Shown here: positions 20,747-43,200 of the stretch, in pieces | How positions within the stretch are numbered: the stretch's first letter is position 1 | Layout of the letters: each line of letters opens with the position of its first letter | Position numbers and translations under genes: made by a program | Notes under the pieces: model-generated | Told to the model about the DNA's origin: nothing | Database searches by the model: none | The model's input: the letters and a program-made list of their open reading frames with translations, nothing else | DNA from: Chiloscyllium plagiosum | Taxonomy: Eukaryota | Direction: 5' to 3' | Assembly: GCF_004010195.1 (NCBI RefSeq) | Contig: NC_057753.1 | Span: forward strand, 12,576,415-12,640,414 | Length of the DNA: 64,000 bases

Positions 20747-21648
20747 TCACGGTTTAATGAAACTGATAAGCATAGCGAAAGGACATAGAAACATTTTCTT
20801 TACTTCCTCACGAAACTTGTTCTGGGATAGCACATAGATGAAAACGTTGTTGCAGGAACTGAGCAAAGTGAGCACAATGCTCGTCTCTTGGATAATGTAT
20901 TGGGGGTCATTGAAATTTAGGTTGCTGATATAGCCCTTACCTATAGCCCGCACGAAGACGAAGTTTCCCACATAAGTCACCCATAGGAGAAGGAAACTCA
21001 GAGAGATAGCAAAAAGCAGAATTATGGATCTCCTACGGTTGGCCATTTCCTTGTCGCCACTGTCCTCGATACTTCGGAGCCTCCTGCGGGCTCTGCTCGC
21101 TGCTAAGATGTGTCTCACAGTCAAAATATTGAGCAGGAAAATGAGGAAGAATGGGAGAAAAGGCGTTAAGATGCGGTCGAGCCAGTGGTAGGCTTGCCAG
21201 GCAGGCAGGGTGTAATAGGTTGACTTAATGTCACAGAACCAGGGGACGCCATCTACAATGACTAATGGCTGGCAGACAAAGTAGAACGGGAAGTTTTTAA
21301 TACAGCTGAGGGCACATATTGTTCCTATGACGATCGATGCAGTTTTCTCCGTACAGTATCTCACCTTCAGGCTCTGCCAGCAGATGGCCACAAAACGGTC
21401 GATGGTGAATGCTGCAGTCAGCCAAACTGAGCAATCCCGACTGATATAGATTAACACCGCACTGAGTGCGCTGGCAGGTGTGGTAGACATGACACTGTAC
21501 CGGAAGTAAATGCGTCCAATGCGTTTGAAGATGACAGCCGTGAGGATGACAAGGAAATCAGATACTGCGATTGCCACCAGGTAGTAGCTGATACATCGGG
21601 AAAGATTACACCGACCTCGGGATAGGATTATGATCGCGACCAAGTTGG
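20747..21648 (-). CDS. GPR139-like GPCR gene B, coding exon 2 (spliced protein 323 aa, intact)
   Basis: Acceptor TGTCACAG (AG at 21650-21649), phase 1 (G+CC = Ala). Open frame with NLVAIIILSRGRC, SVWLTAAFTIDRF, WFC, SFLLLWVTY, SCNNVFIY and stop at 20747. Confidence 0.92.
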
Positions 21649-23256
21649 CTGTGACAGACATAAATACAAGAAGATGTCACTAACTGAAAACAAAGACTAA
21701 TCCAGCATTTTGTGCAATTTTGATCCGTGAATTTTCCACCTCTTTACTCCGATTATCCCCCAAACAATGACATTGGTAGGAGATCAAATGCTGCAGTAAA
21801 TATTTGTCAAGAACACACTTATTCCAATCATCAGCACTAAACCCTTTCACGCCCGTCTTCTATGTACTGCATCAGTACCCGTAGCTAATTTTCCAACTTA
21901 AACTCACCAGTAATGTTTCCTCCCGTGCCCCATCAATGCCAAGCCTATCAAACTTATGTTCTACGTTGACCTACGTTGAATTTCCTTCCTAAAATCTCTC
22001 AGCTTTTATGAGCTCATTCATTGAAATTTCAAACATTTCTATAATCTCACCATTCCCATCCTGTAGCATTCTATGAATGTCTGACAGCGTAGCCGAACTC
22101 CTATCCGGACTGGAGGCAAAACACTGAATCAGTGCAAGTTAAACCTGCAGAAGGAGGTGACCTGAACTTTCAAACATTTCCCTTTCACTGCGTATTTCTT
22201 TCATTCCTTCTTTCGAGTGTTCTTTCCAATTGAACACGTTGATTTTATTTTCTGATTATCAGTGTTAATATCTACTTGTCTTATTCAGGTTTGGATTGTT
22301 AGTTAAATCTCCTGTGAATAATAGTCACTGGTTATATGACAGCAGCTGAAGAAAGAAGCTCAACTTCAATTTCTGAAATGAATATGAGAGACAGGCCCTT
22401 GAACACAAACAGAAACTGCTGGAGAGTCTCAGGGGGTCTGGCCTTGTCTGTGAAGACAGAAACAAGTAGCATTCGCAGTTTGATGTGGTACTGCTTTTGA
22501 ATCTCTACATGAGCAACGTAGATTCACTATGACAATGATATTCCAACCTTAACAAAGATTAAAAAACATTTAACTACTTTAAAAATAAATACCAAATATA
22601 GAGTCCTAATCGGTAAATGAAAAAAACGCAATAAATACAAAATCTTCCATCTTCACTCGCCTCTTTCACATGTTTTCCGAATTAATTCATAAGAGTACGT
22701 TATGAGTTGGAATGCCTAACTAGTGCTTACTATGCTGTAAGAATTTCATCACTCCAGAGGTCTGAAAATCCTTCATTATAATGATCAACAATATCGCATG
22801 TTGCAGTTCGTCAAATAAATGTAATTATTCATTTTCACATACAACTGCAAAAGGCGGTGATGCACTTTACAATACGATAATACACTATTAATTTGAACAG
22901 TACTAACTAGATAGATTCTATTCTACGGCATTGTGGTAAATCCGAGTGATCAATAATGACAATTGTTCATGTTTCAGGCAATGCCGTACATTTCACAAAT
23001 CAAATGGAAAGTGTTTCTTTAAATGTTGAGAATTTCAATTTGAATGATATATTGTTTTATTGCATAACATAGACATAATTGCTCCAGTATGTTTTGGGAG
23101 GTTGATCATCACGTTGTGTGTAGTATAAACTGTGCCAGGTGAAATTCAAGCAGCACTGATCAGTAGAAATTGAAAGGTGACCGATTCTGAAGAGGATGAG
23201 ACACAATTACTGGAGATCCTCAAAACAGTAAATAACTTGATGAGATCATGACTTAC

Positions 23257-23829: not shown

Positions 23830-26375
23830 CTCAATAGAGCCAGCATAGGTGGAAGGCAGAAACAGGAAAGGCGAAGTCACTTTATTGGGAGGTTTCTACT
23901 GATCCCCCAATAGCAACAGAAAAGCGGAGGTGTAGACTAAGTAGTGGATTTTGTAAAGGTACAGAAGTAATAGGGTTGTTGTAATGGGAGACTTTCACTT
24001 CCCGAAAACTGATTAGAACCTCCTTAGTTCAAATAGCTTGTGTGAAGCTGTTGTTATCTGGTATGTCCAGGACGCGTTCCTGACTCAACATTTAGATAGG
24101 CAGACCAAAGCGGCAGAAATATTAGATTGCATTTGTGCTTAGCAATGAATCATTCCAAGTGAGAGAGCATTTCAGCTATCGTGACCATAACTCCCTGACG
24201 TTTTCTATACCCTTGAAGAGGGATATGAGTAGAGATATGGGAAAGTAAATTGTCATTAGGCAGGAACTGGGGCACCTAAATTGGGAAAGATGTTCTCAGA
24301 GAAATTCAGGACAGAAATATAGAGACTGCTTTGGGGTAACTGCTTTTCGTGTTTGACAGGTTTGTCCTACTGTGGCAAGGAAGGGATGGTACGTTGAAAG
24401 AACCTTGTGTTACGAGAGATGTGCAACATCTCGTCAAGAGGAAGAAGGAAGCTTACTTAAGACTGGGGAGGCATGGATCAGGCAAGGCCCGAGAAGGTTC
24501 CAAGGTAGTCAGGAACGAAGTGAAGAAATTACATAATGAGAGCTGGAAGGCGGCATGAAAAAAGCTTTATCACGTAGGACTAAAGAAAACCTGAAGGCAT
24601 TTGACACTTACATGAGGAAGAAGAGGTTGGCCAGTTTGAGTGGAGGGCCGATCAGGGATAGTGGAGGCATCTTGTGCCTGGAGTCAGACGAGGTTGGGTA
24701 GAACCATTAAAAGAGTAATTCGCTTCAGTATTAATTTCTGGGAGAGATATTAACTTTTTTGAGGACAGTCTGGTGTAATGCCGGATGATTGGATGGTGGC
24801 AAATATTGTTCAAGAAATGGAAAATGGATAAACCTTGGAATTGTAGAGCAGTTTGTCACACGTCTATGGTGGGTAAAGCATTGAGAGAATTCTAAGGGTA
24901 TCTAAGAGTATCTAAGATTTATCATTATTTGGAAAACCATAGTTTGGTTGAAGAGTGTCAGCATGGCTTTGTGACAGGCAGATCATCCTTTTCAAACATA
25001 TTTGCATTCTTTGAGAATGTGGCAAAACACATTGATGAAATTAGAGTGGGGATGTGGTATACAAGGAATTGAGAAAGGCGTTTGGTAATGTTCTCCATGG
25101 CAGGTTCATTCAGAAAGTGAGGAGGCATGAGAACAGGGAAATCTGGATGTCTAGATACAGAATTGACTGCCTTAAGGAAGACACAGTGTGGTGGCATGTG
25201 GAAGGTTTTCAGATTGGATCTTGGTGATTAGTGATGTTCCACATGGATCTATTCTCGGATTTCAGCACTTTGCGAATTTATATTTTTTGCTCATTCACTG
25301 GAAAAGGGTGTCGCTGTAATACCAGCATTTGCTGTCCATCCAAGTGGGCAGTTAAGTGTCTACGACATTGATATTGGTCTGGGGTACCACGTTGGCAAAA
25401 CCAGGTAAGGGCAGGAGAAAATGTCTTTCCCGAGTCTAGCGATAATACCATTACGCCATTACCTTCCCATTAGATTACCTGGATAAGGACCCGGAAGGGT
25501 AGCTTTGTAAGTTCACCGATGACATGAAGTTTGGTGGATTGGTTTGTACAGTGGAACGCTGTTTTAGCTTGCAAGAGGACTTTGACAGGATGTAGAGCTG
25601 GGCTGATAATTGGCAGGTGGAATTGAACCTGCAAAAGTGTGAAATGAATAGAATGTTAAAGGCTGCATTCTTGACGGTGTGAAGGAACAGAGGGATGTTG
25701 ACGTTCATGTCCATAATTCCCTGAAATTTGCCACTCAACTTGCTCAGGTTTTAAAGAAGGCGTTAGGTGTGTTAACTTTCATTAACAGTGGGTTCAGTTT
25801 GAGAGCCGTTAAGCTATGATTCAGCTCATAGAGCACTGTTTAGAGCACACCTGGAATATTGTGTTCAGTTCTGATCGCCTCTTTATTGGAAGGATGTGGA
25901 GGCTTTAGAGAGGGTGCAGAGGAGATTTGCCCGAATGCTGCGTGGATACAAGAGCGTGTTTTATGTCAAAAGGGTTGACGGACGGAGGGTTGTTCTCACT
26001 GGACCGATGAACCATGAGGTCTGACTTTGAATGAGGGGAACAAGTTGATCACAGGCACAGATAGAGTGGATGACCTGTGGTGTATCTATATCAGACATGT
26101 TTGTAACAAGCGGGCATAATTTTAAGTTATTGGTTGTAGGTTTAGGGGAGATGTCAAGGGTAGGTTCTTTAAACAGAGAGTGACGGGTGCGTGGAATGCA
26201 CTGCCAGCATTGGCAGGAGAGTCAGATACTTAGGGACATTTAAGCGACTCTTGTGTAAGCACATGGAAGAGAGGTTAGACTGATTTAGATAAGGGTAAAA
26301 GATCAGGACAACATCGAGGGCTGACGGCTTGTACTGTGCTGTCCTCTTCTATGTTCTATGCTCCACGTTCTATGT
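23830..26375 (+). mobile_element. Decayed CR1 LINE ORF2 and 3' UTR
   Basis: MGDF.FP endonuclease segment, QHGFVTGRS, KFTDDMKFGG, HLEYCVQF, and a TTCTATG-type tail near 26347-26374. Confidence 0.85.
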
Positions 26376-26484
26376 AATGGTCTAGAATTCATGTCGAACA
26401 GAAGATGGTATAGATGGGTAGTCCAGGACCACATGGTGTAATCACAGACTAAGTTTTCGCCTTTAAGACAGAATTGTCAAGAGC

Positions 26485-28058
26485 AATGGTTCATTGATAA
26501 GCACTGCTGCTTCACAGCGCCAGGGACCCGGCATCGTTTCGGATGATTGTCTGAGAGTAGTTTGTGCATTCCCCCGTATCTGTGTGGTTTTCCTCCATGT
26601 GCGCCGGTTTCCTCCCACAGCCCAAAGGATGTACAGTTTTGGTGAATTGGCTATGCTAAATTGACCAAAGAGTTCAGGAACATGTAGGTTAGGTGCAATA
26701 GTCATAGAGGAGAAAGTGAGGACTGCAGATGCTGGAGATCAGAGCTGAAAATATGTTGCTGGAAAAGCGCAGCAGGTCAGGCAGCATCCACGGAGCAGGA
26801 GAATCGACCTTTCGGGCATGGGCTCTTCTTCAGGAATGAGGAAAGTGTGTCCAGCAAGCTAAGATAAAAGGTATGGAGGATGGACTTGGGGGAGGGGCGT
26901 TGGAACTGTAATAGGTGGAAGGAGGCCAAGGTGAGGGAGATAGGCTGGAGTGGGGGTGGGGGCGGAGAGGTCAGGAAAAAGATTGCAGGTTAGGAAGGTG
27001 GTGCTGAGTTCGAGGGATTTGACTGATACAAGGTGGGGGGAGGGGAAATGAGGAAACTGGAGAAATCTGAATTCATCCCTTGTGGTTAGAGGTTTTCTAG
27101 GCGGAAGATGAGGCGTTCTTCCTCCAGCCATCGTGTTGCTATGGTCTGGCGATGGAGGAGTCCAAGGACCTGCATGTCCTTGGTGGAGTGGGAGGGGGAG
27201 TTGAAGTGTTGAGTCACGGCGTGGTTGGGTTGATTGGTCCGGGTGTCCCAGAGGTGTTCTCTGAAACATTCCGCAAGTAGGCGGCCTGTCTCCCCAATAT
27301 AGAGGAGGCCACATCGGGTGCAGCGGATGCAATAAATGATGTGTGTGGAGGTGCAGGTGAATTTGTGGCGGATATGGAAGGATCCCTTGGGGCCTTGGAA
27401 GTAAGGGGGGAGGTGTGGGTGGAAGTTTTGCATTTCTTGCGGTTGCAGGGGAAGATGCCAGGAGTGGCGGTTGGGTTGTTGAAGGGTGTGGACCTGACGA
27501 GGGAGTCACGGAGGGAGTGGTCTTTTCGGAACGCTGTTCTAAGAGGGGAGGGTTGGAGGAAGAACACCTCATCTTCCGCCTAGGAACCCTCCAACCACAA
27601 GGGATGAACTCAGATTTCTCCAGTTTCCTCGATTCCCCTCCACCCACCTTGTCTCAGTCAAATCCCACGAACTCAGCACCGCCTTCCGAACCTGCAATCT
27701 TCTTCCTGACCTCTCCGCCCCCACACCCACTCCGGCCTATCACCCTCACCTTGCTCCTTCCACCTATCGCATTTCTAACGCCTCTCCCCCAAGTACCTCC
27801 TCCCTACCCTTTATCTTAGCCTGCTGGACACACTTTCCTCATTCCTGAAGAAGCGCTCATGCCCAAAACGTCGATTTTCCTGCTCCGTGGATGCTGCCTG
27901 ACCTGCTGTGCTTTTCCAGCAACACATTTTCAGCAATAGTCATAGGTAAATATAGGTCGAAGGAGTCGGTCGGGGTTAGTTAGTCTGTGGAGTTGTGGTC
28001 GTGTTGCTCTGAAGGGTCTATGTCCACATTGCAGAGATTCGATGATTCTATGATTCTA
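26485..28058 (+). mobile_element. HE1-type tRNA-derived V-SINE, split by the Penelope insertion
   Basis: AGCACTGCTGCTTCACAGCGCCAGGGACCCGG head, V-domain GGTTTCCTCCCACAG.CCAAA, and a GATTCTAT tail at about 28036-28058. The SINE resumes after the 13-bp duplication. Confidence 0.8.
26708..27934 (-). mobile_element. Penelope-like element (GIY-YIG endonuclease) with about 385-bp inverted terminal arms and a 13-bp target-site duplication
   Basis: ORF 27086-27433 FTCTSTHIIYCIRCTRCGLLYIGETGR...FREH...HFN is a PLE GIY-YIG domain, preceded by PCNRKKCKT. Arms about 26741-27129 and 27551-27934 are reverse complements. GCAATAGTCATAG occurs at 26695-26707 and 27933-27945. Confidence 0.9.
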
Positions 28059-28379
28059 AAAGAAATAGTAGAGTTTCCTAAGCCTGTAACAAAGAAAATT
28101 TTCCATTCATACCTGATTGGGACAGATTCATTCCAGACTCACAGCAAATTAATTAACTCTAAACTGAAAACTGAAGTTGGTTACTAACCGAGACGAATCT
28201 TGTCAAGAGCAACAAATGGGTAAAACAAAATGGAGCCATCACTGGATTCAGTAATATCAATATCCTGTGATTGGAATTAACTGAAAACAGAACTGCATTA
28301 GTAACGTAAGGATGGTCACTAGCATGGCCGAAGCTGCGTTTCCTCCAGCGAATGAATTGAAAAGACATTGAGACTCAGG

Positions 28380-28680
28380 AACAGATGAAGCCATTTCGCC
28401 CAACGAGTCCACTCCACCATACAATGGGATGAAGGCTGATCTCATAATTCACAACTTAACTTCCCTGCTTGTTTGCTATCACCCTTGTTTCCCTTACTTA
28501 TTAATAATCTGTCTCTTTTACCTTTAATATATTTAACTACCCAACTTTTACAGCTCATTGCAATAAAAATCACCACTGATTCACGATCTTGAAGTGAGAG
28601 GGAGAAATAATCAATTTCGGCTGAAAGACTAACGCTTAATCTATGATTACACGTTCTGGTCCTCAACTGTTTTGAGTATA
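28380..28680 (-). mobile_element. Old CR1 3' fragment truncating the ERV
   Basis: Resembles the reverse complement of the CR1 3' ends elsewhere in the window. Confidence 0.5.
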
Positions 28681-28689
28681 ATTCAGAAC

Positions 28690-31190
28690 AGAACAAGTCA
28701 CTTATAGCTGAACATGAATTCACCCAAGTCTCCAGTCAGGCGAAGAATAGAGTTTTTTCCCCATACATAGAAAAGTGATACTAGCCAATGATCTGACTTC
28801 TATGTTCAGACAATTGATGAATGACTTCTTCAGCTCTTTCTACAACCATTCCCACGTCTACAGCCACAAGTGGAATCGGTGGCAATTCTGTTGGCAATTT
28901 TTTTGACAGTTCTAAACGTACGTTAGTTCGCTGGTTTGTGAGATTCATCACTGCTTGTCATGTCGGTTTAGATAAGGTTCTTAGCTTAATAACGATACGC
29001 TGTTTTGGCTTGATAGTAGCAATATTAGGTCAAATTGTATTGCATTGCTTTGAACCCTTCTGGTAATAGCCCCGATGGCTAAATAGCACTTTGTTCCAAT
29101 TAGGGAACACTGCAAGGACTGGTTGTTCACCGACAAAGTAGATTACATTGTCACATATTACAAAATACGAACTGAAAGATTTTGTCTGGTCATGTTATCA
29201 GAGCATGATCACTGATTACTTCCTTGATGAAACAACGTTAATTCAATTCCCTTTTTGGTAGCACTCATAATAAACTTATGAAACGGGCAGTCTTTTAGTA
29301 ATATCAGGTTCCTTTCATGGTATATCCCAATATTGTAATCCTTCTCAGGCGGAGAAAGTGACAACTGCAGATACTGGAGACGAGAGTCGAGAGTATGATA
29401 CTGGAAAAGCATGGCAGATCAGGCAGCATCCGAGGAGCAGATGAATCGACGTTTCGACGCTCGGATTGAGGCTTGTGGGCGGGGGGAGGGGTGCTGAAAG
29501 ATAAATTGGAGGGGGATGGGGTTGTGAGAAGATAGTTTCCTAATTTCACCTCCACCCACATTATTCCAGTGCCAAGCCTCGAATGTGACACCTCCCTCCT
29601 GACCCATCCCTCACTTTTCCCATCTCTGTCCTCCCCCAATCTATCACCTTCTCCCTCACATTTATCTACCTATCGCTTTCACAGCTACATTCACCTTCCC
29701 AACCCAAAACACTCTCATTTATCTCTTAGCTCCCCGGCTCACAAGCGTCATTCCTGATGAAGGGCCTTTGCCCAAAATTTCGATTCTCCTACTCCTCGCA
29801 TGCTGCCAGATCTGCTGTTCTTTCCCAGATAATAACACTACCCCGGTTTAACGTTCCTTTTCATCAGCGTTCTCACTACCCAATACTGTGCTCACAAGTG
29901 TTATACATCTTATGTTTCGCCGACACATTGTCTCAATTGTTTATCAGTCACTCAGTCGGGGAACTTGATGCATATTCTGTTTTAGCAGGTTAGTACTGAT
30001 CATTGTAAATAGTCAACCTGAGCAGATCCTGCACGTTTCTGTTCTATATTCTTCCTTAGGAGTATTAACCAGTCAGGCAATAAATTATTAAGCCATATTT
30101 TGCAGAGGCTTCAGAAACTTAATGGCATTGAACACAACCTGGGATTTTCTCTGTATATCCAATTAGTTTTGACTTGGTCTTGACAGCTCCATCTACAAGT
30201 CTACTCATTTGCTCCTGCAGACTCGAAAGCCTTTTAGCTCTCTTGTTTATTTCTGATATGTTTACAGCCGTTATTCCCCAGGTGCAACTTGCTCCTGCCA
30301 TTTGAAATATCCTGTCATTTTCCTTAGAAGGCTTTTCTCTGACCTGAACTTCTGACTTTCCACCTGTAATCCGAATAGGTGGACAAACAATTATTTTGTG
30401 GTTTTGGAGCATCATTCTTGTATTTTTGTTGGGTCAAAAAATAATGGACATGCATATATCCCAGCACAAGTGTCACGCTTTTTCCAGAATGTTTCATTAC
30501 TAAGCAACCTTTCCTTTATTAATGTTGAGGACTCATTATTAAACTCTCTTGGTTCGGGATCGTGACCACATTTTCACTCAAATCGTGAAATTGGGTCATG
30601 TGTAAATTCTGGAGAATCATTATAGTCTTTTGTAAAGAGGATCTCCGTGCAGTCCACAAGTCATTTACTGAACTTATCATTTTTCCATCCCTTTCGTTCT
30701 ACTACCTTTACTAAATCCACAATGACACACAGTGACACAACTTGCAGGTAGCATCCAATACTTGGGGCAAGCCGAGCATATTGTGACTCGCTGTTCTTCA
30801 CAAATACATTTCACTGGTATTTGCAATAAACCTCTAATTTGGGCTTGATAAATATAATACTTGTTGAGGTCCATGTTAACCGAGCAGTTTTCTTTATATT
30901 TCAATTTTTGATGTGCCTAGAAGGGGAAGGCCTGTTAGAGATGGTCTCATACATTCCCTTTCTGTTCGACTGTGACATAAATTATAATCGTCAATCCTCC
31001 CAATGTTATCGCCTACATGCTATCCACTATTTAATTTTACAGTTACAATGTTCTATATGTAATCAGACTTCCTTTTCTCTACTTCAGTTGCACTCGGAGT
31101 CCATTGTCCATTCCAAAACGAGGTGGCAGTGGTGGCCACTACAGTATGAAGAACAAGGATTCAACACAACTTCCTGAAGGATTCATTATA
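28690..31190 (-). mobile_element. env: Endogenous retrovirus env-like relic, interrupted by a Penelope-derived fold-back at about 29351-29840
   Basis: Directly follows the pol end on the same strand. Hydrophobic leader-like start, RTKR furin-type site at 30545-30556, REK(P) followed by a fusion-peptide-like AGASCTWGITAVN and heptad-like EINKRAKRLSSLQEQMSRL (ORF 30119-30415), then a long Cys-containing segment. Confidence 0.6.
29351..29840. mobile_element. Penelope-derived fold-back inserted in ERV env
   Basis: Left end ACTGCAGATACTGGAG...GGCAGCATCCGAGGAGCAG...TCGACGTTTCG; the right end is the inverted copy CCTGATGAAGGG...CTCCTCGCATGCTGCCAGATCTGCTG. Confidence 0.75.
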
Positions 31191-31194
31191 ATAA

Positions 31195-33850
31195 TTAAGT
31201 TCATTTAACCTAAATTGAGGACAGTGATTCCACTTTTCCAATACCCCCCACCCCCGCAATTCCTATATACTAAAGCGCATGTTTCACTTGTGACAATAGT
31301 TTCGTATGGTGCACCCCATCGTGTTTGCAGTTCCACATGTTTCAGTAATATTGTTCATCCTTACTTGATCTTCTGGATTAGCAGCACTTGCCAAGGATAT
31401 TGTTGTGATCACTTTCTCAATCGCTAATTCTCTGTCTATCAGCAACTTATGAAGTTACTTCACCAGTTCTTCCACAAAATGTTTAACCCTATTCTTTCCA
31501 TTGCACATGTTTTGTCGTCCTATTATCACATCCTCTGGTATTTGGATAGTCCATCCACTCACTAATTCAAAGAGGATCAACCACTTTCTCTTTACTGGCG
31601 TTGACTTCAATTTCATTAAGATCGCAGCAAGTACAGTAAAGCATCATTCAGCTTTAAGTGATGCGTTTATTCAGTCTACTATTTATGAACTTTGGCAGTG
31701 GTATGGGAGAAGACATTTCTGTTTAATGTCCTGTCTAACAGGACAGATCCTTGCTTAAGTTATATTCCTGTAAAATGTGACCTTTGGTCAGAATCTATCT
31801 GGAAGTTGCACCCCACTCCCGCCCGACCTGGGTGTAATTTCTTTTGCCAATGTTATTGCAACGGTTCCTGCTGAGAAATCCCTGCAGGAGAATGCTTCCA
31901 CCCATGGAGTACATCTACCTTTCCAGACCTGCTTCCTTCTCTGAGGTTGGGGTATAGGTCCCGTAAAGTCCATGTGCAATTGCTTCAATGGGCCCCAAGA
32001 CCTAGCTAATGACTCTATCTTATCTTGGTTGCTTGCTTTGGCTCACACTGCGCACAGATTGCACATTTCTGAAATAATTTTGCTGTGTCTTTTCCTATTC
32101 CAGGCCACTTGATATTGCGTTTTATCCCGCCTTACGTGGGCCAGACAATGATATGTTTTAATAACTGATGTCATATACAATGTGGTGACACTACGTGATC
32201 CATCGTCCTACATGCTCTATCTTGCCCTGTCATCGCCCCACTGAATTTCCCATTCCGTTTTTTTCTTCTTGTGGGCCTGTTTCTTGGAGAGTTGCAGTTT
32301 GTAACGTACCTCCCTTGCTTTTGTGAAAAATGCGACTGCCAGTTTCTCAAATGTCATTTCGATTTATGTAAGTACCTTAGCTGCTTTTTTGTCAAACTCA
32401 TTACCCCGTTGTTTCTGGTGTTTCTACCTTCAAGCTCAGATCAACATATTATCACGCACTATACCAAACGCACATCTACTATCTCCTTCTCTACCATCAA
32501 TTCTGCTGGAGTTACTAAACTGCTGGTTTTACTAATCCTTGAATATTTGTATATGCTTGTCTGCAGGGGCATTGTCCTTGATTTTTATAATTCTAATAGA
32601 GTCAACAAATTATGGGATGTGCGTAGGACAACTTGCCCCATCAGAATAATGGGTTCATACACTGAAACTACCCATGGATCACAATCAAGACCCTGAGGAC
32701 AATGGTAAACTCTGGCGACATCGTTTTTCTTTATTAGAATAATATCCTACTGCCCTTATACTATCATCACTCGTTTGACACATTACTCTTTAGTGTCCAT
32801 TCTCAATATCAAAGGAAATATGAAATTTCCTTTGACATATCTGCCGTAGGCTTGCTGTCACCTAGTATACGCTATGTCTGGTCGAGGGTCATACTGTGTT
32901 CTTTCCCTTGACAGTTCCATAGCCTCGCTTCCTTGCCAGGACTTGTAAGTGTTCTGTCAATTCTGAATAATTCTCCACAAAATACCTTTAATAAATCAGC
33001 AATCTTAAATTTTGCCGTGCATCTTTTAAAGTGTGTGTACGTTGTAATTTCAGCTTTACACTCTGCTGGGAATATTTTCTCCCCTTTCCTAAAGTGATGT
33101 CCCAAATATCTATATGTTACTTCTGGTCTTCGCAATTGTACTTGTCATGGAATAATTGCAAGCCAGCTGACTGACTGATCACTTTAAAAAAAAAAAATCA
33201 GCAACTGTGGCGATCAGAATGCCATGTGCATACTGCAAGATAATAGTTCAGTGTCCATCAGATAAATTTGATGAACACAATAAACCTTACATCAGTCAAG
33301 CATGGCTGGACAGTTGTGGATTTTGGGATATAACCAGGTCAATTAATTGGTTTTCTTCGAACAGCAAACGCCAGCTGATTGTGGGATTCCATTTCCACAG
33401 GAACAGACCAGACGTTGTTCACTATGTCAAGAACTGAGAACAGATCCTGTTGCACTGTCATTCCATTAAATATAGTGGTGGAATTCGCTACTATTAGATA
33501 GTCTTTACTGGCATATCTGTTTAGGGAGGTATAGACAATGATGAGGTGATGTACACTCCGGCTTACTGACCTGCCTATTAAATGATTTAGTTTGGGGTAT
33601 GGTCAGTTTGACGATTCACTTCCTCACTACTACCGTCGGAGTTTCTGCTTCCTGAGCCTGCATTGAGATACTATTTATGCCATGCTGGATTACGGGGGAA
33701 AGGTGGTCGAGGAGTTGGTGAGAGCATCCCTCGATCTTCACAGGTTTTCCAAATAACCCATTCTCGATCATCTTCTTGACCAGCTTCTCAGTGCAGTCTA
33801 GTACACTTCATATCAGCGAGTCTTCTGGGCCCCGTAGCCTTTTCTCTTTC
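31195..33850 (-). mobile_element. pol: Endogenous retrovirus pol relic (RT, tether/RNase H-like, RNase H end, integrase)
   Basis: Hand translation across frameshifts gives motifs in retroviral order: FSVLDIVNNVWSVP (about 33400-33440), LQYAHGILIAT from YVDD (33221-33232), VQLRRPEVT..YLGH, RAVGYYS, GNEFDKKAAK, HCLAH...CAIC zinc finger, QLHMDFTGP, WVEAF...TVA..LAKEI.PR.G, IDSDQRSHFTG, PYHCQSS, RWGAPY. Confidence 0.85.
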
Positions 33851-33969
33851 AAAATTGAAAGAACTGCAGGTACTTTAAATTAGGAACAAAGACACAAGTT
33901 GCTGGTTAATCTCAGGAGATCTGGCAGCAACTGTGAAGATAAATCAGAATTAACTTCTCGGGTCAGAAC

Positions 33970-36120
33970 ATTCTTAAGGTGAAAGAACCTTTTGGAGGCA
34001 GTGACCATGATATAATCGAATTTACTTCGCAATTTGAGAGGGAGAAACTGGGATCAGCTGTAACAGTTTTCTAGTTGAATAAAGGCAACTGCAGCGGGAA
34101 GAGCTGACCATAATTGACTGGGAGAGGAGACCAGTAGAAAATCAGTGGAAAAGCAATGGCAACTATTTGTAGGAATAATTCAAGAGGCACATAAAAATTC
34201 ATTCCGAGAAAAACGAAGCATAGGAAAGGGAGGGCTAAGCAACCATGAGTGACAAGGAAAGTCGCAATGGCAGAGAATCAAAAGGGAAAGCATATAAGGT
34301 GGCGAAGGGCAGTGGAAAACCAGATGATTGGGAAGTCTAAAAAGACCAACAGAGGAGAACAAAAATAGAAATAAGGAGGGAGAAAATTAAATACGATGGT
34401 AAACTAGCCAGTGAAATAGAACATTTCAAGGGTGTCTTTAAATATATAAAGGAAAAGAAAATGAGAGGCAAGAGTGGATAATGTGCCACTGTGAAATGAC
34501 GCTGGAGAAGGTTTCTTGGAAGAAAAGATATCGTGGAGGAACTGAATAAATAATTTTCCTCAGTCTTCTTGGTGGAACACTGACATAATATGCCAATAAC
34601 TAAAGAGAACTGAGGGCAGATGTGAATGTGATGGCCATCTCCAAGGAGAAGATGCGATAAAATCTGAAAATTGATATGAAACCATGACAAGATGGATTAC
34701 AGATGGAATTCTGATGGAGCAAGCTGAAGAGATAGTGGAGAAATTCGTTGTTAACTTTCAGGGATCATTAGAGCCAGGAAGGGTTCAAGAGGACTTCAAA
34801 ATCCCAAATGCAACTTTTCTGTTTAAGAAGGGCATAAGGCAAGAAATGAGAAATTACAGGTTGATTAGCCTAACCTCGTAGTTAACATTTTGGAACCCAT
34901 TATGAAGGATGAGATTTCTGAATATTTGGAAGTGCATGGTAAATTTGGACAAACTCCGCATGGTTTCGTCAAGGGGCGATCATGCCTGACAAATCTGTTA
35001 GAGTTATTTAAAGTGGTAACAAATAAGTTTAACCACGGAGAGAAAATGGATGTTATCTAATTGGAATTCAAGGAGGCCTTTGAAAAGTAGGCTGTTCAGT
35101 AAGATAAGAGACCATGGTGTTAGAGGCAAGGTACTGGCATACATAGAAATTGGTTGCCTGTCAGAAAGCAGAGACTGAGGATAAAAGGGGGCTTCTTAGA
35201 ATGGCAGCCGTTGATTAGAAATGATTGACAAGGGTCAGTGCTTGGGCCACAACTTTTTCACTTCACACATAAATGATCTGGCATTCTGTCTAAGTTTGCA
35301 GACCATACAAAGATAATTGGATGAAAATGCAGACAGTATTTAGGCAGGGTAGGAACGAGGGCAAAGAGGTGGCAGGTGGAATACAATGTGGGGAAGTGTA
35401 TGGTCACACACTTCTGTAGGAAGGATAGAGACATATACAATTTTCGAAACGGGAGGAAATTCGGAAAGCTGAAGTGCAGAGAGTCCAGGAATCTTTTAAG
35501 ATAAACTTGCAGCTGGAGTTTGTAGTTCATAAAGCAAATTCAATGTTGGCATTTATTATGAGAGGACGCAATTTTAAAAGTCGCAATGTGCATCTAAGGC
35601 TCTGGTCATACCACATTTAGAATATTGCGAGCAATTGTGGGCTCCTAATCTCAGGAAGGATGCATTGCCCCTGGAGAGTTTACAGAGGAGGTTCATGAGA
35701 ATGACCTCAGAAATGAGAGGTTTAACACATGAGGAACTCTGGGTCCAGACTCAATGGTGTTTCGAAGGATGAGTGCGGATCGAATTGAAATTTACAGAAT
35801 ACAGAACGGCCTGGACAGCTTGGATGTTGGAAAGATGTTTCCATTGGCAGGGGAGACCAGTACCCTAGGTGGGAATATTTGCATAAACGCAAGATACTTT
35901 AGAATGGAGATAAGGAGAAATGTCTTCTGCCAGAGAGTGGTGAATATTTGGAATGCATTACCAGAAAAGATTGTGGTGGCCAGGTTATTGAGTATATTTA
36001 AGGCAGGGATCGATACGTTATTGATTATCAAGATGATCGAAGGTTATGGGGAGAAAGCGGTGAATGTGTTTGAGAAACTTGTCAGCCACGATTGAATAAC
36101 GGATCAGACTCAATGGGCCA
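33970..36120 (+). mobile_element. Decayed CR1 LINE ORF2
   Basis: [61 protein letters not shown]...RRNVFCQRVVNIWNALP. Confidence 0.85.
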
Positions 36121-36309
36121 TTTCCTTAGCTGCAAAATATCTGTCTCTTTTGTTTTCTGTTTCAAAATTGCTCAGCGAAAATTTCATTCACCTTCTAATT
36201 CTGCAAAAACGGACTGTTCACAACTGAAAAATCTCTGCCTTCAAAATCACAGAAAGAGGTAATCACCTCTTGAACTGGTTTTGAAGTGATATTTTGAACT
36301 GCAAAACTA

Positions 36310-36392
36310 GGCGGCACGGTGGCTCATTAATTAGCAATACTGCCTCCTAGCGCCAGGGACCCGGGATTTATCCCTACCTTGGGCGACTGCCT
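36310..36392 (+). mobile_element. HE1 SINE 5' tRNA-like head fragment
   Basis: GGCGGCACGGTGGCTCA...GCGCCAGGGACCCGGG. Confidence 0.7.
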
Positions 36393-36806
36393 TTAATTTT
36401 TCCACTGCCTTACCTCTGTGCTGAACTTCTTCCTGGCCAAATGCAGGGCTCTAATCAGAAACTGCAACATTTGCAAACTGATTACAAGGAAACGGACGTC
36501 ACTAGCTGGGACATGATTTATTGCCCTCCTTAATTTGTGTAAACTGAAGAGCCAGTTTCTTCAATCTTTGAACTCCTCGGCATGTCGGTACAGCCATGTT
36601 GTCAGTAGGCAGGGAGTTCCATGATTTAGATCGAGTAACACTGAAGGAATAGAGATATATTTCCAAGACAAAATTGTGCAAAGATTTCAAGGGTGTTTGT
36701 GGGTGGCAGTTATCTCATTCATTTCACTGCCATTTTCCATCCAGACATTATCAAACTCTTACTGGACTCACTCTAGCAGATTAAGTATATATATTTTATT
36801 TGCAGC

Positions 36807-36808
36807 AA

Positions 36809-36861
<53 letters not shown>

Positions 36862-36891
36862 GAAGGAAGGAAGAAAGAAAGAAAGAAAGAA
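36807..36891 (+). repeat. (GAAA)n/(GGAA)n microsatellite
   Basis: Directly visible. Confidence 0.95.
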
Positions 36892-37179
36892 CAGTTTTAA
36901 ACACTGCCTGACAACACTTGGAGAGTCACCAGTGTGGTCAGAGATGCAAACTATAGATTAGTATCACGTCTAAAAACTCTCCAAATTCACAAGCTTTCAA
37001 TAGTTAAGACAGCAATGCATCAGAGCACAAGAAAAGACTTTCCATTTCACTAGTGCAAGAGCTTGCTCATATTTCTTTCTCATTCTTGTTTGAGACAGAT
37101 CGTAACGAACTGTGCCTCTGTGATGGAAGAGAAACAGCGTCGGTAGATATGTATGTTTTATTTACTCTAGAAGCTTTTA

Positions 37180-39517
37180 TCATTTAACATTAGTGACAGT
37201 CGTGAAGGGACACATACGCTTTGTCATCTCTTCTCGAAATTTGTTCTGGGACATTGCATAAATGAAGACATTGTTGCAGGATCTACGTATCTGAGGCAAG
37301 TTGGTCGTTTCTTAAAGAATAATATCAGGGTCACTGAAATCCAGGCCATTGAAGGATACTTCACTTAACAGTTGCACATAAAGATAATAGCTGCACCAAA
37401 GGAGGAGGAAACTGAACGAAACGCCAAAAAGCAACAGAATGAATGTCTTGCGATTGGCCATCTCTGGTTCTACATCATAGACCTGCCAGAAAGACGAAGT
37501 ATTGGTATAATGTCACAGAAGCAGGTCACCCTATCCACAATGTACCGTGACGGAGGGACTAAGTAGACAAAGACGTTCTTAACACAGCTCAGATAACAGA
37601 TCATTCCTATTACCAGCGTTGAAGTTTTCAAGTTGCAGTATCTGATCTTCAGATTCCGACAGCTGATGACCACAAAACAATCGATGGTGAAAGCCACTGT
37701 CAATCAGACAGAGCTACCTCGCGGAGCATTGTCCACATCACTGGTGATTGTTCACCCAGGGGTGGTAGATAGGGCACTGTTTCTGAAGTAGATACCACCA
37801 ATACGGTTGAGGACACTGCCAGCCACAATGACAGGTTGGTTAGCCATTATGATTCCCACCAGATAAAAGGTGACGCAGAGAGAGTGCCTAATTTGCCTTT
37901 GGCACAAGGCAATGATCACCAACAAGTTTGCTATAAGGACAGTGGAGACAAATATGTTACAGAATGAATCCCAAACTCCAGTCAATTATCCTCCCTATTT
38001 TGTTACTGAAAATGCTATCTCTCCACCTTCATCCATCCTTTTACTCAATCCTGATACCAACTGTTACCAAGCAGTTGGTTTTTCTTCAAGATTCAGTCAT
38101 GAATTAAACATTTGTACATATAGTAGCCACTCCAGTCAGCCCATGTGCAAACACCATTCTCTTTCCATTGAATCAAATCTTTCCGAAGCTCATCACTTTA
38201 ATCATACGCATACTTTTGTTTTCCGATCAAAGTCTATATTGATACTATCATCATTTCTTTCAAGGCAATGCATTTGTCTCCGGTCTGGCAATGCAGGATT
38301 TTAATAATGTAAACATTTTAATTTTCAATTAGCTCCATAGGCTCTCTCTTCACATCCCAGAAGTCTCAATTTATCCGTAATACTGCAATATCGTGTTTTA
38401 ATTCTTCTAATCAATCTGTCAGTGGTTATCTCGTGATCTACCGACGTGGTAACCTCTGGAAGCCACCTCCAAAGCCAGCCTCAATGTTCATATTTCTCTT
38501 TCTTTCTTTAGTTTGCACCTCACAATCAAACTTGATGTTCACGAATGTGCCAGCATGTAAAACCTGATTCTTTATCACCCTCCAAACCAATGGTTTGCTA
38601 GGCTATTTCAAACAGCAGTTAATCATCAGTCCGATTGCTGCCTGTCTCCTGCCACATACAGACCAGTGCAGGTAACAACAGTGACCTTCGTTTTCTGAAG
38701 TGCATTCGTAAACAAAATGGTATTTACGAAATTCCTCACTGATTATATGGCCATCATTAGATTTTTTTTTAAAATGCCACATTCCTTTATGAAATTCAAA
38801 TGAGCTCAAATATTTCCTAATGACAACAACAGAACCCATAACAAATTAAAATCTCGTTATTTTTAGACAAATCCACAAAAAACTTTATACGATACGATAC
38901 TAATAATGACACAACAAAGTTGAAACATATTAGCTTCTAATCACTATATTCCTCCACCAGTAAAAACTGCTGTGATTATTGCATGTACACTTATCTTGCA
39001 GTTCATCTACTACAACAATTGCTTCTCATAATATATTGTGATTCGTGTTTAACGACCCTAAGATAGTAAGTTTTCTACCTGGTATGTTACCACATGGATT
39101 TTAACGTGTTTTTTTTTAACGTTTATACCTTTTAATATTCATGTAAAGCTGGGTATACCAACTTAGATTTTAATTAAGTACCAAATGGAATTTCTATAAA
39201 TTGATTACGAAACATTAGTTAATAGCTTGAATTGTACCACAATGAAATTGCAATTTATATGCACATTTTAGCATAAAACCTGTGCTAAATGTACGTAAAG
39301 CACCTGTGCATGCTATAGCCACGTGCGAGCCCCGAACTTGCAAAGAGTACTGAAAATTACGCAATAATACAGCGCAACACAAAATGTAAGATACGACACG
39401 TTTGGTGATTTACAGGTATAAACGATAACATTTCGGGGATTAAACGCTTAGAAAGGGCGCCAATCAAAGGGATAAGTGTATAATGACAAAGAACGGGGCA
39501 ATGACTGGCTCATTCAT
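37180..39517 (-). pseudogene. GPR139-like pseudogene C (decayed exon 1 at 39452-39517, exon 2 at 37180-37930)
   Basis: Exon 2 starts after TCCTTATAG and reads NLLVII...LNRIGGIYFRNSALSTTPG*, LTVAFTIDCF, SCNNVFIYAMSQNKFREE. Stops at 37752, 37704 and 37312, a frameshift, and loss of TM5. The exon 1 relic ATG AAT GAG CCA GTC ATT GCC CCG TTC TTT aligns to gene B exon 1 with a 4-nt deletion and donor GT changed to CT. Confidence 0.85.
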
Positions 39518-39939
39518 CGTCTTTAAGAAGTTAAGAAATTTCCCAAATCTATACATGCAATCTCTACGAAACATTCAGATCTTCCCACATTTATTTTGAG
39601 CAAGAGTCTACAAAGGGACGAATCATGAACAGCAAGCACCTCAGTTACAGTTAGGTGAACAACCAAATTAACTAATGATTCCATGTCTTCCATTTGCAAC
39701 AACAAAAATGTTGAATATCTCATTTCACTTTTTTGACAAATGACTGAGTTGAACTCTGCCGTCCCACGTCGCCAGTTACCATGCTTTTGAAAGTGCCACT
39801 GATTGAGTATGCTGACTCCTGATTGTGTCGTTATTAAAAATTGTATCCTTCCTCATTCCCATTTCACACGCATAAAGAGAATTTAATTGCCAGATTAGTG
39901 TACGTATTACTTTTTATTGTGAAGTATTTTAATCGTTCA

Positions 39940-40735
39940 TGGTTTAATTGAACCAATGCCTCCCTAAATTCCATACGCTAGACCGCCACTCTATGGCTGT
40001 TGAACCAGTTTGTTCCTGCCACACTGAGTTCGTTTCCTCCTACCTTGACTCCATCCTCGCTCACGTTTTTGGACCCTGACAACCGACATAACTGATTCCC
40101 TGATGCCCTCCGCCTTATTGTCCATTTCAACTTCCCAGCCCTCATTGCCGTTTGTTCACTGTGGATCTCCAATCCCTCTACACCTCCATTCCCGACGAGG
40201 ATGAACTGAGAGCTCACAGCTTCTTACTCCTCCGGCAGCCTCAACAATCCCCGTCCACCATCACTCTCCTCCGCTTGGCACTCCATGGTCTCTTACTGGC
40301 ATGGCTTCCTTCCTTCATAACGGTGGTTTCCTGCCTACTGTGCTTGGCAGGGGCATAATTGTACCCTACCTTGTTCTCAGGTTTCATGGCATAAGTGTCC
40401 GCATTCAATGAATCATTCTCCGTTATTTCAGACAACTGCAGCTGAACTTCCCACCAAACGCTTCTATCGTTCAATTTCCCTGTCTGCATTTGGCAAGGAT
40501 TTTTTTTTCTTTCCTGGACACCTGAGCCCATTCCTCGATCACCAATACCAACCCACTTCCCATGTAACCGCAAAAAAGTGCAATACCTTTCCCTTCACCT
40601 CTTCCCTGCTCAACATGCAAGGGCCTAAAGAGTCCTTCCAGTTGAAGCATGATTTCACCAGTACCTCCTCAAATCTTTTGTATTGTATTCACTGCATCGA
40701 GTGTGCCCTACGTTGCATTCAAGAAAGCAAGCAAG
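39940..40735 (+). mobile_element. Internally deleted Penelope-like element (RT and GIY-YIG remnants)
   Basis: FTVDLQSLYTSIP (PLE RT motif) and KCNTFPFTS...QGPKESFQLKHDFTSTSSNLLYCIHCIEC, homologous to the ORF at 27086. Confidence 0.8.
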
Positions 40736-41119
40736 ACTTGGCCTGGCGTAAAGCGACGGGCAGACCAGGAAAGAACAGAGATTTCTTCCCCTTGCGGACA
40801 TTATTAAACCATATGTGTCTTTTTTTATGAACAGAAAACAGTGTTGTTTTGGCCATGATTCGATTAAATCTTGTTTTTCCCCAAATTCAGTTTCCGCCAT
40901 TTGCCATTTGAAACCACCTTTCTGAAATATTACTAATCCAGTAGCATTATCGCTACATACACAACATTTCCTAAATTGTATGATATATTGTGATGCAATT
41001 CAAGCACTGCACGAAGTATACCAACCTGTGTCATTGAATAAATAAATGCGTAACAGTTCCACTGTTCCACAGTCATTGCATTTCCTTGTACTTCAATTAC
41101 ACCTGAACATGTCATTTTT

Positions 41120-41458
41120 AGTCATATAAAACATAGAATACCGTGAGTGTGGAAAGAGGCCACTTGTCCAAACAAGTCCACAGCGACACTACAAAGAGTA
41201 GTCCACCCAGGCCCATTCCCCTTTTCTATATTTCCGTTGACTAATGCACCCAAACAAAATACCTCTGACCACTATGGGCAAATTAATATAGCCAATTCAC
41301 CGAAGCTGGACAAGTGTAACTGTGGGAGGAAACCGGACTACCTGGAGGAAACCCACGCAGATACGGGGGTAACCTGAAAACACCGCGCAGACAGTAGATC
41401 GAGGGTAGCATCGAACCCAGGTGAAGCAGCAGTGCGAACCACTGTGCTACCGTGCCAC
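41120..41458 (-). mobile_element. HE1-type SINE
   Basis: Reverse complement of the V-domain (TGTGGGAGGAAACCGGA..ACCTGGAGGAAACCCACGCAGA) and of the head (AACCACTGTGCTACCGTGCC). Confidence 0.8.
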
Positions 41459-42314
41459 AGTGCTGTGTTTACGCTTCTTCTACGGACTCAAAAGTTTCTC
41501 GTGGTCTCATGAAACCATAACTAGGTAAATAGTTTACTGTTAACTTGATGTGTTATGTATTTATAATTACAGAACATGATCATGGAATTCCATTTAACAC
41601 GATTATAAATGATCTTCAGAAAATATCGCCTGCACTGCAGATACCTTGGGTCATCCTTATGTGGTAAATCCATTTGTTCATAACCATACAAGAGGCAGAG
41701 TTGAGACAGTAACCAAACCAAGGACCGATTGTTGAATGAACGTGGAAGTTAGATGCATGCCTCTATATTTTAACCAAATATGCCTTTATGATGTATCGAT
41801 TCAATGCCAGTTTGAATTTCCCATTTACTTCACCTCCACCCCCTGCCCCCCCCCCAGTAAGGCAGCAAATTTTATTCCAACATTGATTCGTTTCAGAGCA
41901 AAGGACTTGTCATATTCATGGGCATTCTGTTACATTCAAACGTTAGTCAAGAGTCTTCTGCTGTGGCAATTGTGGAATTAATATCTATCCACATCTTGCA
42001 AAGTGCTTATGTTTTTGCTTGTGTATTCCATTCCATCGAAGTGATTCAGAAGGCAAATATAAGCCTCATTCCCGTTCAAAGAGGTTAAATTTCCAACAGT
42101 GTCATACTCCTGCGCAGGCTATCGGAATTGTATTGTAGGGTAAGGGGCTGAATTGTAGAGTTTATATCTTTGAACTGAGATTTGACACTTCCACTTGATA
42201 ACACGTATGAGCGAGATTAATTTTAGGCGAGCCACCCGGATCAAGAACAATCAGTATAAAGAAGGAGAGAACAATTTAGTTTCCATAGAGGAACGTGAAT
42301 ATGTTATTTGTTTC

Positions 42315-43200
42315 TCAACGTTTGATGGAAGGAATGACGGTGATATTAGGATTGAATACTAGTTTTCTTGACTCCACTCTGAACGTTTTCTTGGTCACCA
42401 AATAAACATTATTGCAGGAGGACATTTGTATTGGGATGATATTCGTCTTCTTTGAAAGGATTTACTGCATATCATTGAAATGCAGTCCACTTATGTAGGG
42501 CTCACCCAGAATCCGTACGTCGAGATAATGTCCAGCATAAGTTCTCCATAGAATGAGGAAGCTGAGAAAGAAAGTGAAACGCCGAGCAGTTGATCCCTTG
42601 CAGTTGGAAATCACCGGGTCTTTGTGGTTATCATCACAACGAGGCCTCCTCCGGGCTTCGCTGGCTGCAAAGACGATCGCAGCATTGGAAGGCAGAATGA
42701 GCAGTAATGGCAGAAATGGTTTAAAGATGTGGTTCAGTTGTGGTAGCTCTGCCAGGCGGGAGACGTGTAAAACAATTGACCTGACGCTAGAGATTCGAGG
42801 CATGCTATCCAGCATGTTCAAGAACCTGGAAGTCAAGTAAGACAGAGATTCTTGATGCATTTCAGTAGATAAGCTATTCATTTGGCAAGCAACGCAGTTT
42901 TCACCGTGCAGTATCTATTCTTCAGGTTATGGCAGCAAATGGCCACGTAACGGTCAACAGTCAAGGCCACTATCAGCCAAATTGAACAATTCCATATGGC
43001 GATGACAAGGACAGTTTTGACCTATACAAGGAAATGATGAGCAAAAAGCTTTCAGAAAAATAGATATCTCTAATACCGTGGATAATGACAACAGTGATGT
43101 TGACATAGAAATCAATTACAGTATCGTCATTAGAGAGTAGTTGATGCACCGGTAGAGTTAACATCGTCCCACTGATAGTTTCATAATTGTTAACAAGCTG
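42315..43200 (-). pseudogene. GPR139-like pseudogene D (exon 2 relic, many frameshifts and stops)
   Basis: Recognisable segments SIWLIVALTVDRYVAICCHNLKNRYCTVKTA, LNHIFKPFLPLLLILPSNA, AASEARRR, SFLILWRTY, EPYISGLHFND and SSCNNV. No exon 1 found. Confidence 0.85.

Follow-up and report, generated by a model that had tools for sequence, protein, structure and literature searches.

INTRODUCTION

Basal endogenous retroviruses (ERVs) of cartilaginous fishes are already in print. Han (2015) describes a lineage resembling snakehead retrovirus (SnRV) in elephant shark (CmiERV lineage I; PMC4422223), Xu et al. (2018) report infection by the SnRV-related clade Huo in every major vertebrate lineage (PMC6001957), and foamy-like ERVs are described from elephant shark (CmiFLERV; PMC5512871) and catshark (ERV-Spuma.0-Sca; PMC10699275). 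For lokiretroviruses, Wang and Han (2021) give a count of 0/6 chondrichthyan genomes (PMC7947760). Here we describe a 64,000-nucleotide stretch of the genome of Chiloscyllium plagiosum (contig NC_057753.1, positions 12,576,415 to 12,640,414 of the forward strand; referred to as the window, in whose numbering all coordinates are given), where an ERV lies on the minus strand at 28690-33861 between G protein-coupled receptor (GPCR) genes. A preliminary description had read this element as an ancient retrovirus of spuma/loki-like type and regarded it as potentially new for a cartilaginous fish. The element is indeed old, and its novelty was overstated, given the SnRV-like and foamy-like ERVs just cited. 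That a shark lokiretrovirus would be notable agrees with the 0/6 count, and our own literature search, with most subscription papers outside its reach, found no report of a lokiretrovirus from a cartilaginous fish.

RESULTS

The element is a real, heavily decayed ERV lying in a GPCR cluster; we show the homology and order of its reverse transcriptase (RT), tether, and integrase, its single-copy state, and its presence together with its flanks in three organisms. Six-frame translation recovered every pol motif quoted in the preliminary description, all on the minus strand and, because of frameshifts, in three frames: LDIVNNVW (33431-33408), the tether motifs RAVGYYS (32756-32736) and VVLRTSH (32632-32612), GNEFDKKAAK at the end of RNase H (32405-32376), the H-x3-H of the integrase finger (32150-32136), and DFTGP of the integrase (31970-31956). 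The C-x2-C of the finger falls near 32065-32045, in two overlapping readings of different frames. The resulting order, RT-tether-RNase H-integrase, is the retroviral one, as had been claimed.

Pol was then read with a frameshift-aware aligner, which placed an X at each break. RT plus tether (about 33860-32500) scored 222 against an all-group retroviral profile versus 37±2 for shuffled sequences (maximum of 42 in 10 shuffles), and the integrase (32170-31255) scored 215 versus 35±5 (maximum of 48 in 30 shuffles); both scores are far above chance. The fingers, palm, and thumb of RT lie at 32890-33575, interrupted by stops and frameshifts, in alignment with the Pol proteins of SnRV and walleye viruses; the catalytic motif is not intact. 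Upstream, 33576-33861 is a weak region that probably holds the N-terminal part of RT and the sequence just before it and that sets the 5' limit of the surviving element (alignments of the references P0041 and P0026 begin at 33861 and 33744, respectively); profile alignments of RT begin only at 33545-33560, inside that limit. The tether, a degenerate first RNase H, lies with its linker at 32495-32830 and aligns to the tethers of SnRV, walleye viruses, and lokiretroviruses. The zinc finger and catalytic core of the integrase (DFTGP, WVEAF, and IDSDQ) occupy 31554-32170, as indicated by the profile, the Pfam family Integrase_H2C2, and the integrase tree. They are followed by a C-terminal domain at 31255-31402, whose GPY-like motif, WGAPY, lies at 31318-31304 and which scored 47 with a gamma profile and 45 with an epsilon profile versus 26-27±4 for shuffled sequences (maximum of 37-38 in 30 shuffles).

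The preliminary description had stressed the presence of two RNase H-derived domains. Of these, the tether is clear, and the separate RNase H at 32376-32483 survives as two scraps (32483-32450 and 32420-32376) about 10 codons apart, the bulk of the domain being gone. Their order and position fit, but their score is weak: it was matched by 38/300 shuffles with the all-group profile, by 6/300 with the epsilon profile, and by 58 to 215 of 300 with the other four group profiles. The tether-to-integrase spacing is ~115 codons in the element versus roughly 280 in the epsilon reference. Because shuffles reach the score this often, the dual-RNase H argument taken alone is plausible but weak.

Searches confined to single frames returned little. 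Pfam, run on whole frames and pieces of the element, gave Integrase_H2C2 as its sole match (E=0.0028, below the curated cutoff), and PDB searches of the three minus-strand frames gave, among the 3 matches listed, one that was useful, a foamy PR-RT chain (7kse_A; E=0.032) hit by one frame. Single-frame protein searches found no relatives among 484 candidates, 1,091 candidates, or 1.84 billion representatives; these are weak blanks, two of them having been run in an unintended frame. No functional protein can come from the element today, and co-option was rejected on the basis of about 15 stops and 10 frameshifts across 583 aligned codons.

Copy number was judged from contigs of sequencing runs, and runs of three organisms, which look like related species, contain the stretch. 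In organism B, a single contig of 3,846 bases spans 29756-33664 with 263 differing letters, and both ends of the element are bridged by further contigs. For organism C, the contigs differ by 7-8.5% and extend over most of the element; the 3' end is bridged by one of them, and another includes the insertion in env (described below) at its site. Two other organisms, about 7% diverged, thus have the orthologous element together with its flanks. Depth in bins holding ERV sequence only was mostly single copy, with short local spikes; therefore, the runs examined contain no family of closely similar copies (≥85% identity). No RNA run was listed among those containing the stretch. One single-cell RNA run, of which about 2 in 100 reads were examined, had no reads on the ERV-only bins, a weak negative result.

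The corrected divergence is 0.07 to 0.09, or ~0.036 per lineage for organism B. The stops in aligned codons (10 to 15 in 461 to 583) imply that, once function had been lost, 0.15 to 0.19 substitutions accumulated per site (95% range, 0.07 to 0.32). This estimate is rough, being raised by misaligned codons and lowered by the aligner's tendency to avoid stops. Set against ~0.036 per lineage since the split, it suggests an age for the insertion of roughly four to five times that of the split. Even with the mammalian rate that PMC4422223 quotes (2.2e-9), the decay would represent 70 to 85 million years; PMC10699275 and PMC4422223 assume slower rates for sharks, which yield implausibly old dates, and we give no absolute age.

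To place the RT, reference loci were collected by motif scans of viral contigs, which yielded gamma, delta, foamy, and epsilon viruses and SnRV. The labels walleye epidermal hyperplasia virus (WEHV)-like, gamma, delta, and foamy are partly presumed by us and also rest on length and tree position. L030 and L102 match the SnRV and walleye dermal sarcoma virus (WDSV) rows, respectively, of the Wang and Han supplement. Two other motif scans of viral contigs gave nothing useful, one returning 0 loci and the other 3 with no match to the window. A metagenome scan gave three lokiretrovirus loci among 12, and a profile search gave 95 more RT proteins, three of them from cartilaginous fishes. Of 97 cut sequences, 55 were selected for the reference tree by their coverage and spread, and the order of the tree was as expected: Gypsy, lokiretroviruses, P0033, foamy viruses, SnRV, and classes II and I. 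P0033 is an RT-plus-tether protein basal to foamy viruses, SnRV, and orthoretroviruses (ultrafast bootstrap support [UFBoot] of 95 in this tree and 74 in the free tree described below); it might be a foamy-like ERV (FLERV) or an Ovex1-type element. MAFFT scattered short pieces of the window, and only the two well-placed pieces entered the search alignment.

The element's RT is best read as lying at the base of Retroviridae proper, with its preferred position beside SnRV. When the row aligned with the all-group guide was placed on 107 branches, the best 7 all lay at that base, within 2.2 log-likelihood units (lnL) of one another. The lokiretrovirus stem was 15.2 lnL worse (approximately unbiased [AU] test, 0.009; Kishino-Hasegawa test, 0.016; Shimodaira-Hasegawa test, 0.50), the class I stem was 15.5 lnL worse (AU, 0.050), positions inside epsilon/gamma were worse by 26 or more, and Gypsy was worse by 29.9 or more. 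We also used guide-independent columns, the 154 residues on which three guides agree. With this row, SnRV was the best position, and the other six basal branches, within 3.8 lnL, were not rejected; the class I stem was 11.2 lnL worse (AU, 0.003), the stem of two chondrichthyan epsilon-like proteins was 13.5 lnL worse (AU, 0.12), and the lokiretrovirus stem, 9.5 lnL worse (AU, 0.06), was disfavored but not rejected. A free maximum likelihood tree of the 154 residues (29 of the 55 references plus the element, 30 sequences) made the element sister to SnRV (UFBoot, 79), within Retroviridae to the exclusion of lokiretroviruses (UFBoot, 98) and outside classes I and II (UFBoot, 98). When sequences were simulated under the mask and branch length of the element, an epsilon truth was recovered 9/9 times and a lokiretrovirus truth 9/9 times; therefore, a long branch alone does not pull the RT to the base.

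These placements bear on whether the element could instead be a Ty3/Gypsy retrotransposon, possibly env bearing, with a chance motif in place of a second RNase H. The statistical weakness of the RNase H scraps and a Gypsy profile score of 139 on RT plus tether speak for it. However, on agreed columns Gypsy positions were 18 to 20 lnL worse (AU, 0.05 or less), as they were by a larger amount with the all-group row, and the clade of lokiretroviruses plus Retroviridae held the element at a UFBoot of 99. We regard this explanation as largely refuted and very improbable. The frameshift-aware reconstruction and RT phylogeny proposed in the preliminary description thus put the RT outside Ty3/Gypsy, and they uphold its view of an ancient, deep-branching lineage outside classes I and II; as detailed below, they do not uphold the lokiretroviral or strictly foamy-like type.

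Several observations weigh against a position beside SnRV. Placement varies with the guide alignment: with the epsilon-guided row, the orthoretroviral stem was best, class I was not rejected, and SnRV was 10.7 lnL worse (AU, 0.17). When agreed columns were limited to RT (101 residues), the lokiretrovirus and class I stems both escaped rejection (AU of 0.11 and 0.07, respectively). Pairwise scores of RT plus tether put walleye epsilon viruses (152 and 141) ahead of SnRV (118), and identity on agreed columns was 34 to 40% to epsilon-like proteins versus 29% to SnRV. The integrase, likewise, matched that of SnRV poorly (pairwise score of 58; profile score of 39 versus 34±5 for shuffled sequences). 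The reference set contains one SnRV-clade sequence and two near-identical teleost-type lokiretroviruses and is without CmiERV-I, CmiFLERV, ERV-L/S, ERV4, Ovex1, and fish foamy-like elements, and the simulations model no frameshift misalignment.

Part of this evidence is what would be expected if the element were a divergent class I ERV (epsilon-like, clade Mu) that looks basal because of decay. Such an origin would account for the top pairwise scores and identities with walleye epsilon viruses and epsilon-like proteins, for the outcome with the epsilon-guided row, and for the chondrichthyan epsilon-like stem's escaping rejection on agreed columns; the RNase H scrap and the GPY-like end also fit class I in the table of Chong et al. 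(2014; PMC4299795), as does the sister relationship of the integrase to class I integrases in the tree described below. Against it stand the rejection of the class I stem on guide-independent columns, the exclusion of the element from classes I and II in the free tree, and the correct placement of all nine simulated epsilon sequences. In addition, none of the 95 fetched RT relatives exceeded ~40% identity to the element even over short stretches, the best-scoring ones being at 25 to 33%. On balance, a class I origin seems unlikely.

The RT and the integrase appear to point in different directions. In the integrase tree, the element was sister to class I integrases (UFBoot, 67 to 77), with lokiretroviruses next and SnRV and foamy viruses elsewhere, and the pairwise scores were 157 to one epsilon virus and then 143 to a genuine lokiretrovirus integrase. 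The GPY/F-like motif after the integrase core is present as in class I, although in PMC4299795 the motif is also found in some SnRV/Ovex1 relatives. From its sequence, the integrase would be nearer to class I and lokiretroviruses than to SnRV or foamy viruses. Such discordance agrees with the account by Wang and Han (PMC7947760) of integrases having been replaced repeatedly in retroviruses, and a similar mix has been described for Ovex1 (Carre-Eusebe et al. 2009; PMC2717909). Assignment to the Repbase groups ERV3/ERV4, for which the table in PMC4299795 gives an absence of the GPY/F motif, was rejected given the GPY-like end.

The integrase is also pertinent to a shark foamy-like lineage basal to true foamy viruses (of the CmiFLERV/XtrFLERV, CFEFV, or ERV-Spuma.0-Sca type), of which the element would likewise be a dead provirus. 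Cartilaginous-fish foamy viruses (CFEFV) are reportedly the subject of a 2023 paper by Wang, Chen, and Cui. The RT leaves room for this lineage, since the foamy stem and P0033, only 0.9 to 2.9 lnL behind the top position, were not rejected; the only PDB match of note was to foamy PR-RT, and basal shark FLERVs have been published (PMC5512871 and PMC10699275). However, the integrase falls outside the foamy integrase clade and ends in a GPY-like motif, unlike the foamy type, which has no GPY/F module. Moreover, identity to mammalian foamy RT on agreed columns (21 to 25%) is below that to SnRV, which is also the sequence that the element joins in the free tree. We therefore consider a foamy-like origin unlikely, and the spuma-like type, in its strict sense, is not sustained by the integrase.

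The preliminary description had also noted an env-like region. After the integrase, and with the same A-rich strand bias as pol, comes a region of about 2 kb that we take from its position to be env. Its putative 5' part (29829-31170, minus strand) follows the integrase and by eye contains a hydrophobic, signal-like stretch (31169-31113) and a Cys-rich part; a possible cleavage site and fusion-peptide/heptad region lies near 30340-30170; and the putative 3' part (28690-29350, minus strand; 3' limit approximate) resembles a long transmembrane (TM) subunit, a single frame of 170 codons there containing 4 stops. The heptad-like stretch after about 30340 would imply a TM-like subunit of roughly 385 codons. 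The Env proteins of lokiretroviruses, SnRV, and WDSV likewise have a long TM subunit, whereas gamma-type Env does not. No intact RXKR site was seen at the putative cleavage position.

The region is in the right place, but homology to any reference Env was not found. None of the six frames had a Pfam match, including to PF00523 (Fusion_gly), which lokiretrovirus reference Envs do match. Five reference Env profiles, each compared with 25 shuffles, gave no score above the shuffle maximum (8 to 12 of 25 shuffles reached the score with strict penalties and 1 to 22 with lax penalties). Seven of 18 pairwise Env comparisons exceeded the maximum of 8 shuffles, by 1 to 6 points, where ~2 would be expected by chance; this slight excess may reflect coding origin instead of kinship and is a hint at most. 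The displayed alignments (four to lokiretroviruses, two to SnRV, and two to WDSV) had no consistent register. An apparent likeness of the 3' piece to the tail of Loki-Xtr Env was rejected, its BLOSUM62 score by hand (about 37) being at noise level, and a single-sequence fold of this piece was unusable (pLDDT, 40).

Env is one of the places where a lokiretrovirus, which would be the first from a cartilaginous fish, might have been recognized. The long TM-like part is compatible with this identity, as are the best local match to two lokiretrovirus Envs, which falls at the cleavage/fusion-peptide position but at noise level, and the integrase score of 143, second only to that of the epsilon virus. 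The lokiretrovirus stem was not rejected on agreed columns or with the Gypsy-guided row (AU of 0.06 in each case). Yet RT plus tether scored only 62 to 72 with lokiretroviruses in pairs and 62 with their profile, and by eye the RT is without two segments common to the lokiretrovirus rows of the Wang and Han supplement, its spacing being that of the SnRV row. The lokiretrovirus stem was rejected with the all-group row, the free tree excluded the element from the group, the lokiretrovirus Env profile was equaled by 11 and 22 of 25 shuffles, and the integrase C terminus scored as a gamma/epsilon type. These comparisons involve the two near-identical teleost-type references. Judged from the sequence, the element is probably not a lokiretrovirus, and that part of the preliminary description is not supported as the preferred reading.

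As reported before, gag and long terminal repeats (LTRs) could not be recognized, nor was a primer-binding site found: a repeat search of 24000-40000 and a self-BLAST of the window gave no LTR pair, gag and protease were not seen by eye in six-frame translations of 27000-42600, no reference gag open reading frame aligned above noise within 28300-34000, and the window has no tRNA gene. Abutting the 5' end of the element is a copy of a long interspersed nuclear element (LINE)-type retrotransposon (33973-36118, plus strand) with RT-like text and a 65% match over 2.3 kb to a copy at 51542-53725. The LINE starts at 33973, exactly where gag, pro, and the 5' LTR would be expected, and because the 5' end is truncated there, we do not count the absence of gag, protease, paired LTRs, and a primer-binding site against a retrovirus. 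The two LINE copies are old, lie in opposite orientations, and are 65% identical; from its motifs, we take the copy at 33973-36118 to be CR1-like.

The putative env is interrupted by a high-copy-number repeat (29351-29828) with 80 to 81% matches to 26709-26814 and 27839-27919. Depth over the repeat reaches 650,000 versus about 35 in the ERV bins; it occupies the same site in organism C and is partly seen in B. It is related to a palindromic element at 26709-27934, whose arms (26744-27132 and 27548-27934) are 91% complementary and whose core reads, as we presume, like a GIY-YIG/Penelope-type fragment. Akin pieces lie at about 1100-1210, 18800-19185, 29351-29828, 40556-40709, and 45206-45500.

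The flanks are 7tm_1 GPCRs, in agreement with the earlier placement of the element between receptor genes. On one side is an open frame on the minus strand (20795-21673; Pfam E=1.3e-19), with 52% identity to the GPCR at 4304-5251; on the other is a broken paralogue on the minus strand (37225-37937), found as two tblastn pieces at 38 to 45% and containing stops. The window holds five related GPCRs (4304-5251, 20795-21673, 37225-37937, 42372-43021, and 55221-56122), with 38 to 55% identity to the first; two are open frames, and three are in pieces, which suggests birth-and-death evolution of the cluster.

Some observations concern the reference sequences themselves. The TM part of WDSV Env (L102:5962-9648, residues 460 to 900) was nearest to F-type fusogen clusters in an ESM Atlas feature search, with scores of 0.92 to 0.94 for Baculo_F clusters, 0.92 for Fusion_gly, and 0.90 for coronavirus spike; these scores involve no alignment and are uncalibrated for protein parts. 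SnRV Env (L030:6131-9532), in which Pfam finds no viral family, gave weaker F-type leads in the same search (Baculo_F, 0.83; Fusion_gly, 0.82). Our literature search, which did not extend to most subscription papers, found no report of an F-type Env in WDSV or SnRV. If true, an epsilonretrovirus with an F-like Env would mean that such an Env is not special to lokiretroviruses and foamy viruses; this is a lead only. Three loci in public metagenome assemblies (L147, L152, and L155) are lokiretroviral; in L152, gag, pol, and env are all long open frames, the last of which extends to the contig end. The lokiretrovirus reference Env matches Fusion_gly. Another metagenome locus, a Gypsy-like element (L148:1133-5431), combines the RT-type RNase H with another, strongly matching RNase H domain (Pfam E=6e-34) and branches among Gypsy in the 55-sequence tree, placing the dual-RNase H layout outside retroviruses as well.

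DISCUSSION

With moderate confidence, we favor assigning the element to the SnRV-like group in the broad sense, i.e., clade Huo sensu Xu et al. (2018), including Ovex1-type elements. It resembles SnRV and clade Huo in its best RT placement and free-tree sister, its probable layout of tether plus RNase H, and its H-x3-H finger, and SnRV Pol also has a GPY-like end (MLVIN_C) and SnRV Env a long TM subunit. It differs from SnRV in sharing 29% identity on agreed RT columns, in its integrase, and in showing no Env similarity. Ovex1, which represents the Ovex1/SpeV-type unclassified ERVs and was compared by description only, differs in having open frames that are under purifying selection and expressed (PMC2717909), whereas the element is shattered.

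The other known groups each share features with it. Epsilonretroviruses (WDSV and WEHV-like viruses) and epsilon-like shark ERVs give the top pairwise scores, an integrase sister relationship, and a GPY-like end, and WDSV has a long TM subunit, but the RT falls outside class I in the tree. Lokiretroviruses share the tether and probably the RNase H, the integrase similarity, and possibly a long F-like Env, but the element is without their RT signature segments, its RT lies outside the group, and Env homology was not detected. Shark foamy-like ERVs, compared by description only, are likewise basal, non-class I/II retroviruses of cartilaginous fishes, and the foamy stem was not rejected for the RT; the difference from mammalian foamy viruses lies in the integrase and its GPY-like end. 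A further reading, which we find doubtful, is that of an unsampled deep lineage bridging lokiretroviruses and the rest, with a basal RT, an integrase of class I/lokiretrovirus type, an F-type Env homologous to that of lokiretroviruses, and a site that would have been orthologous for well over 100 million years.

For the favored SnRV-like assignment, the following history can be proposed. A deep-branching exogenous retrovirus would have entered an ancestral germ line and, working as retroviruses normally do (RT copying the RNA, RNase H removing it, integrase inserting the DNA, and Env mediating entry), would have left a provirus on the minus strand of the GPCR cluster, with little amplification. 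Decay after insertion was probably neutral. The 5' LTR, gag, and protease would have been lost where the LINE now lies, most of RNase H would also have gone, and a repeat would have entered env while stops and frameshifts accumulated.

A lokiretrovirus identity, or a lokiretrovirus-type Env on a true retroviral RT, would, if true, matter far more, and neither is shown here. The element adds a further dead ERV of basal type to those published from this group of hosts, and it would not surprise a specialist. The discordance between RT and integrase would be a further instance of integrases being exchanged among early-branching retroviruses, and the single-copy locus, orthologous in three organisms, could serve as a dating marker.

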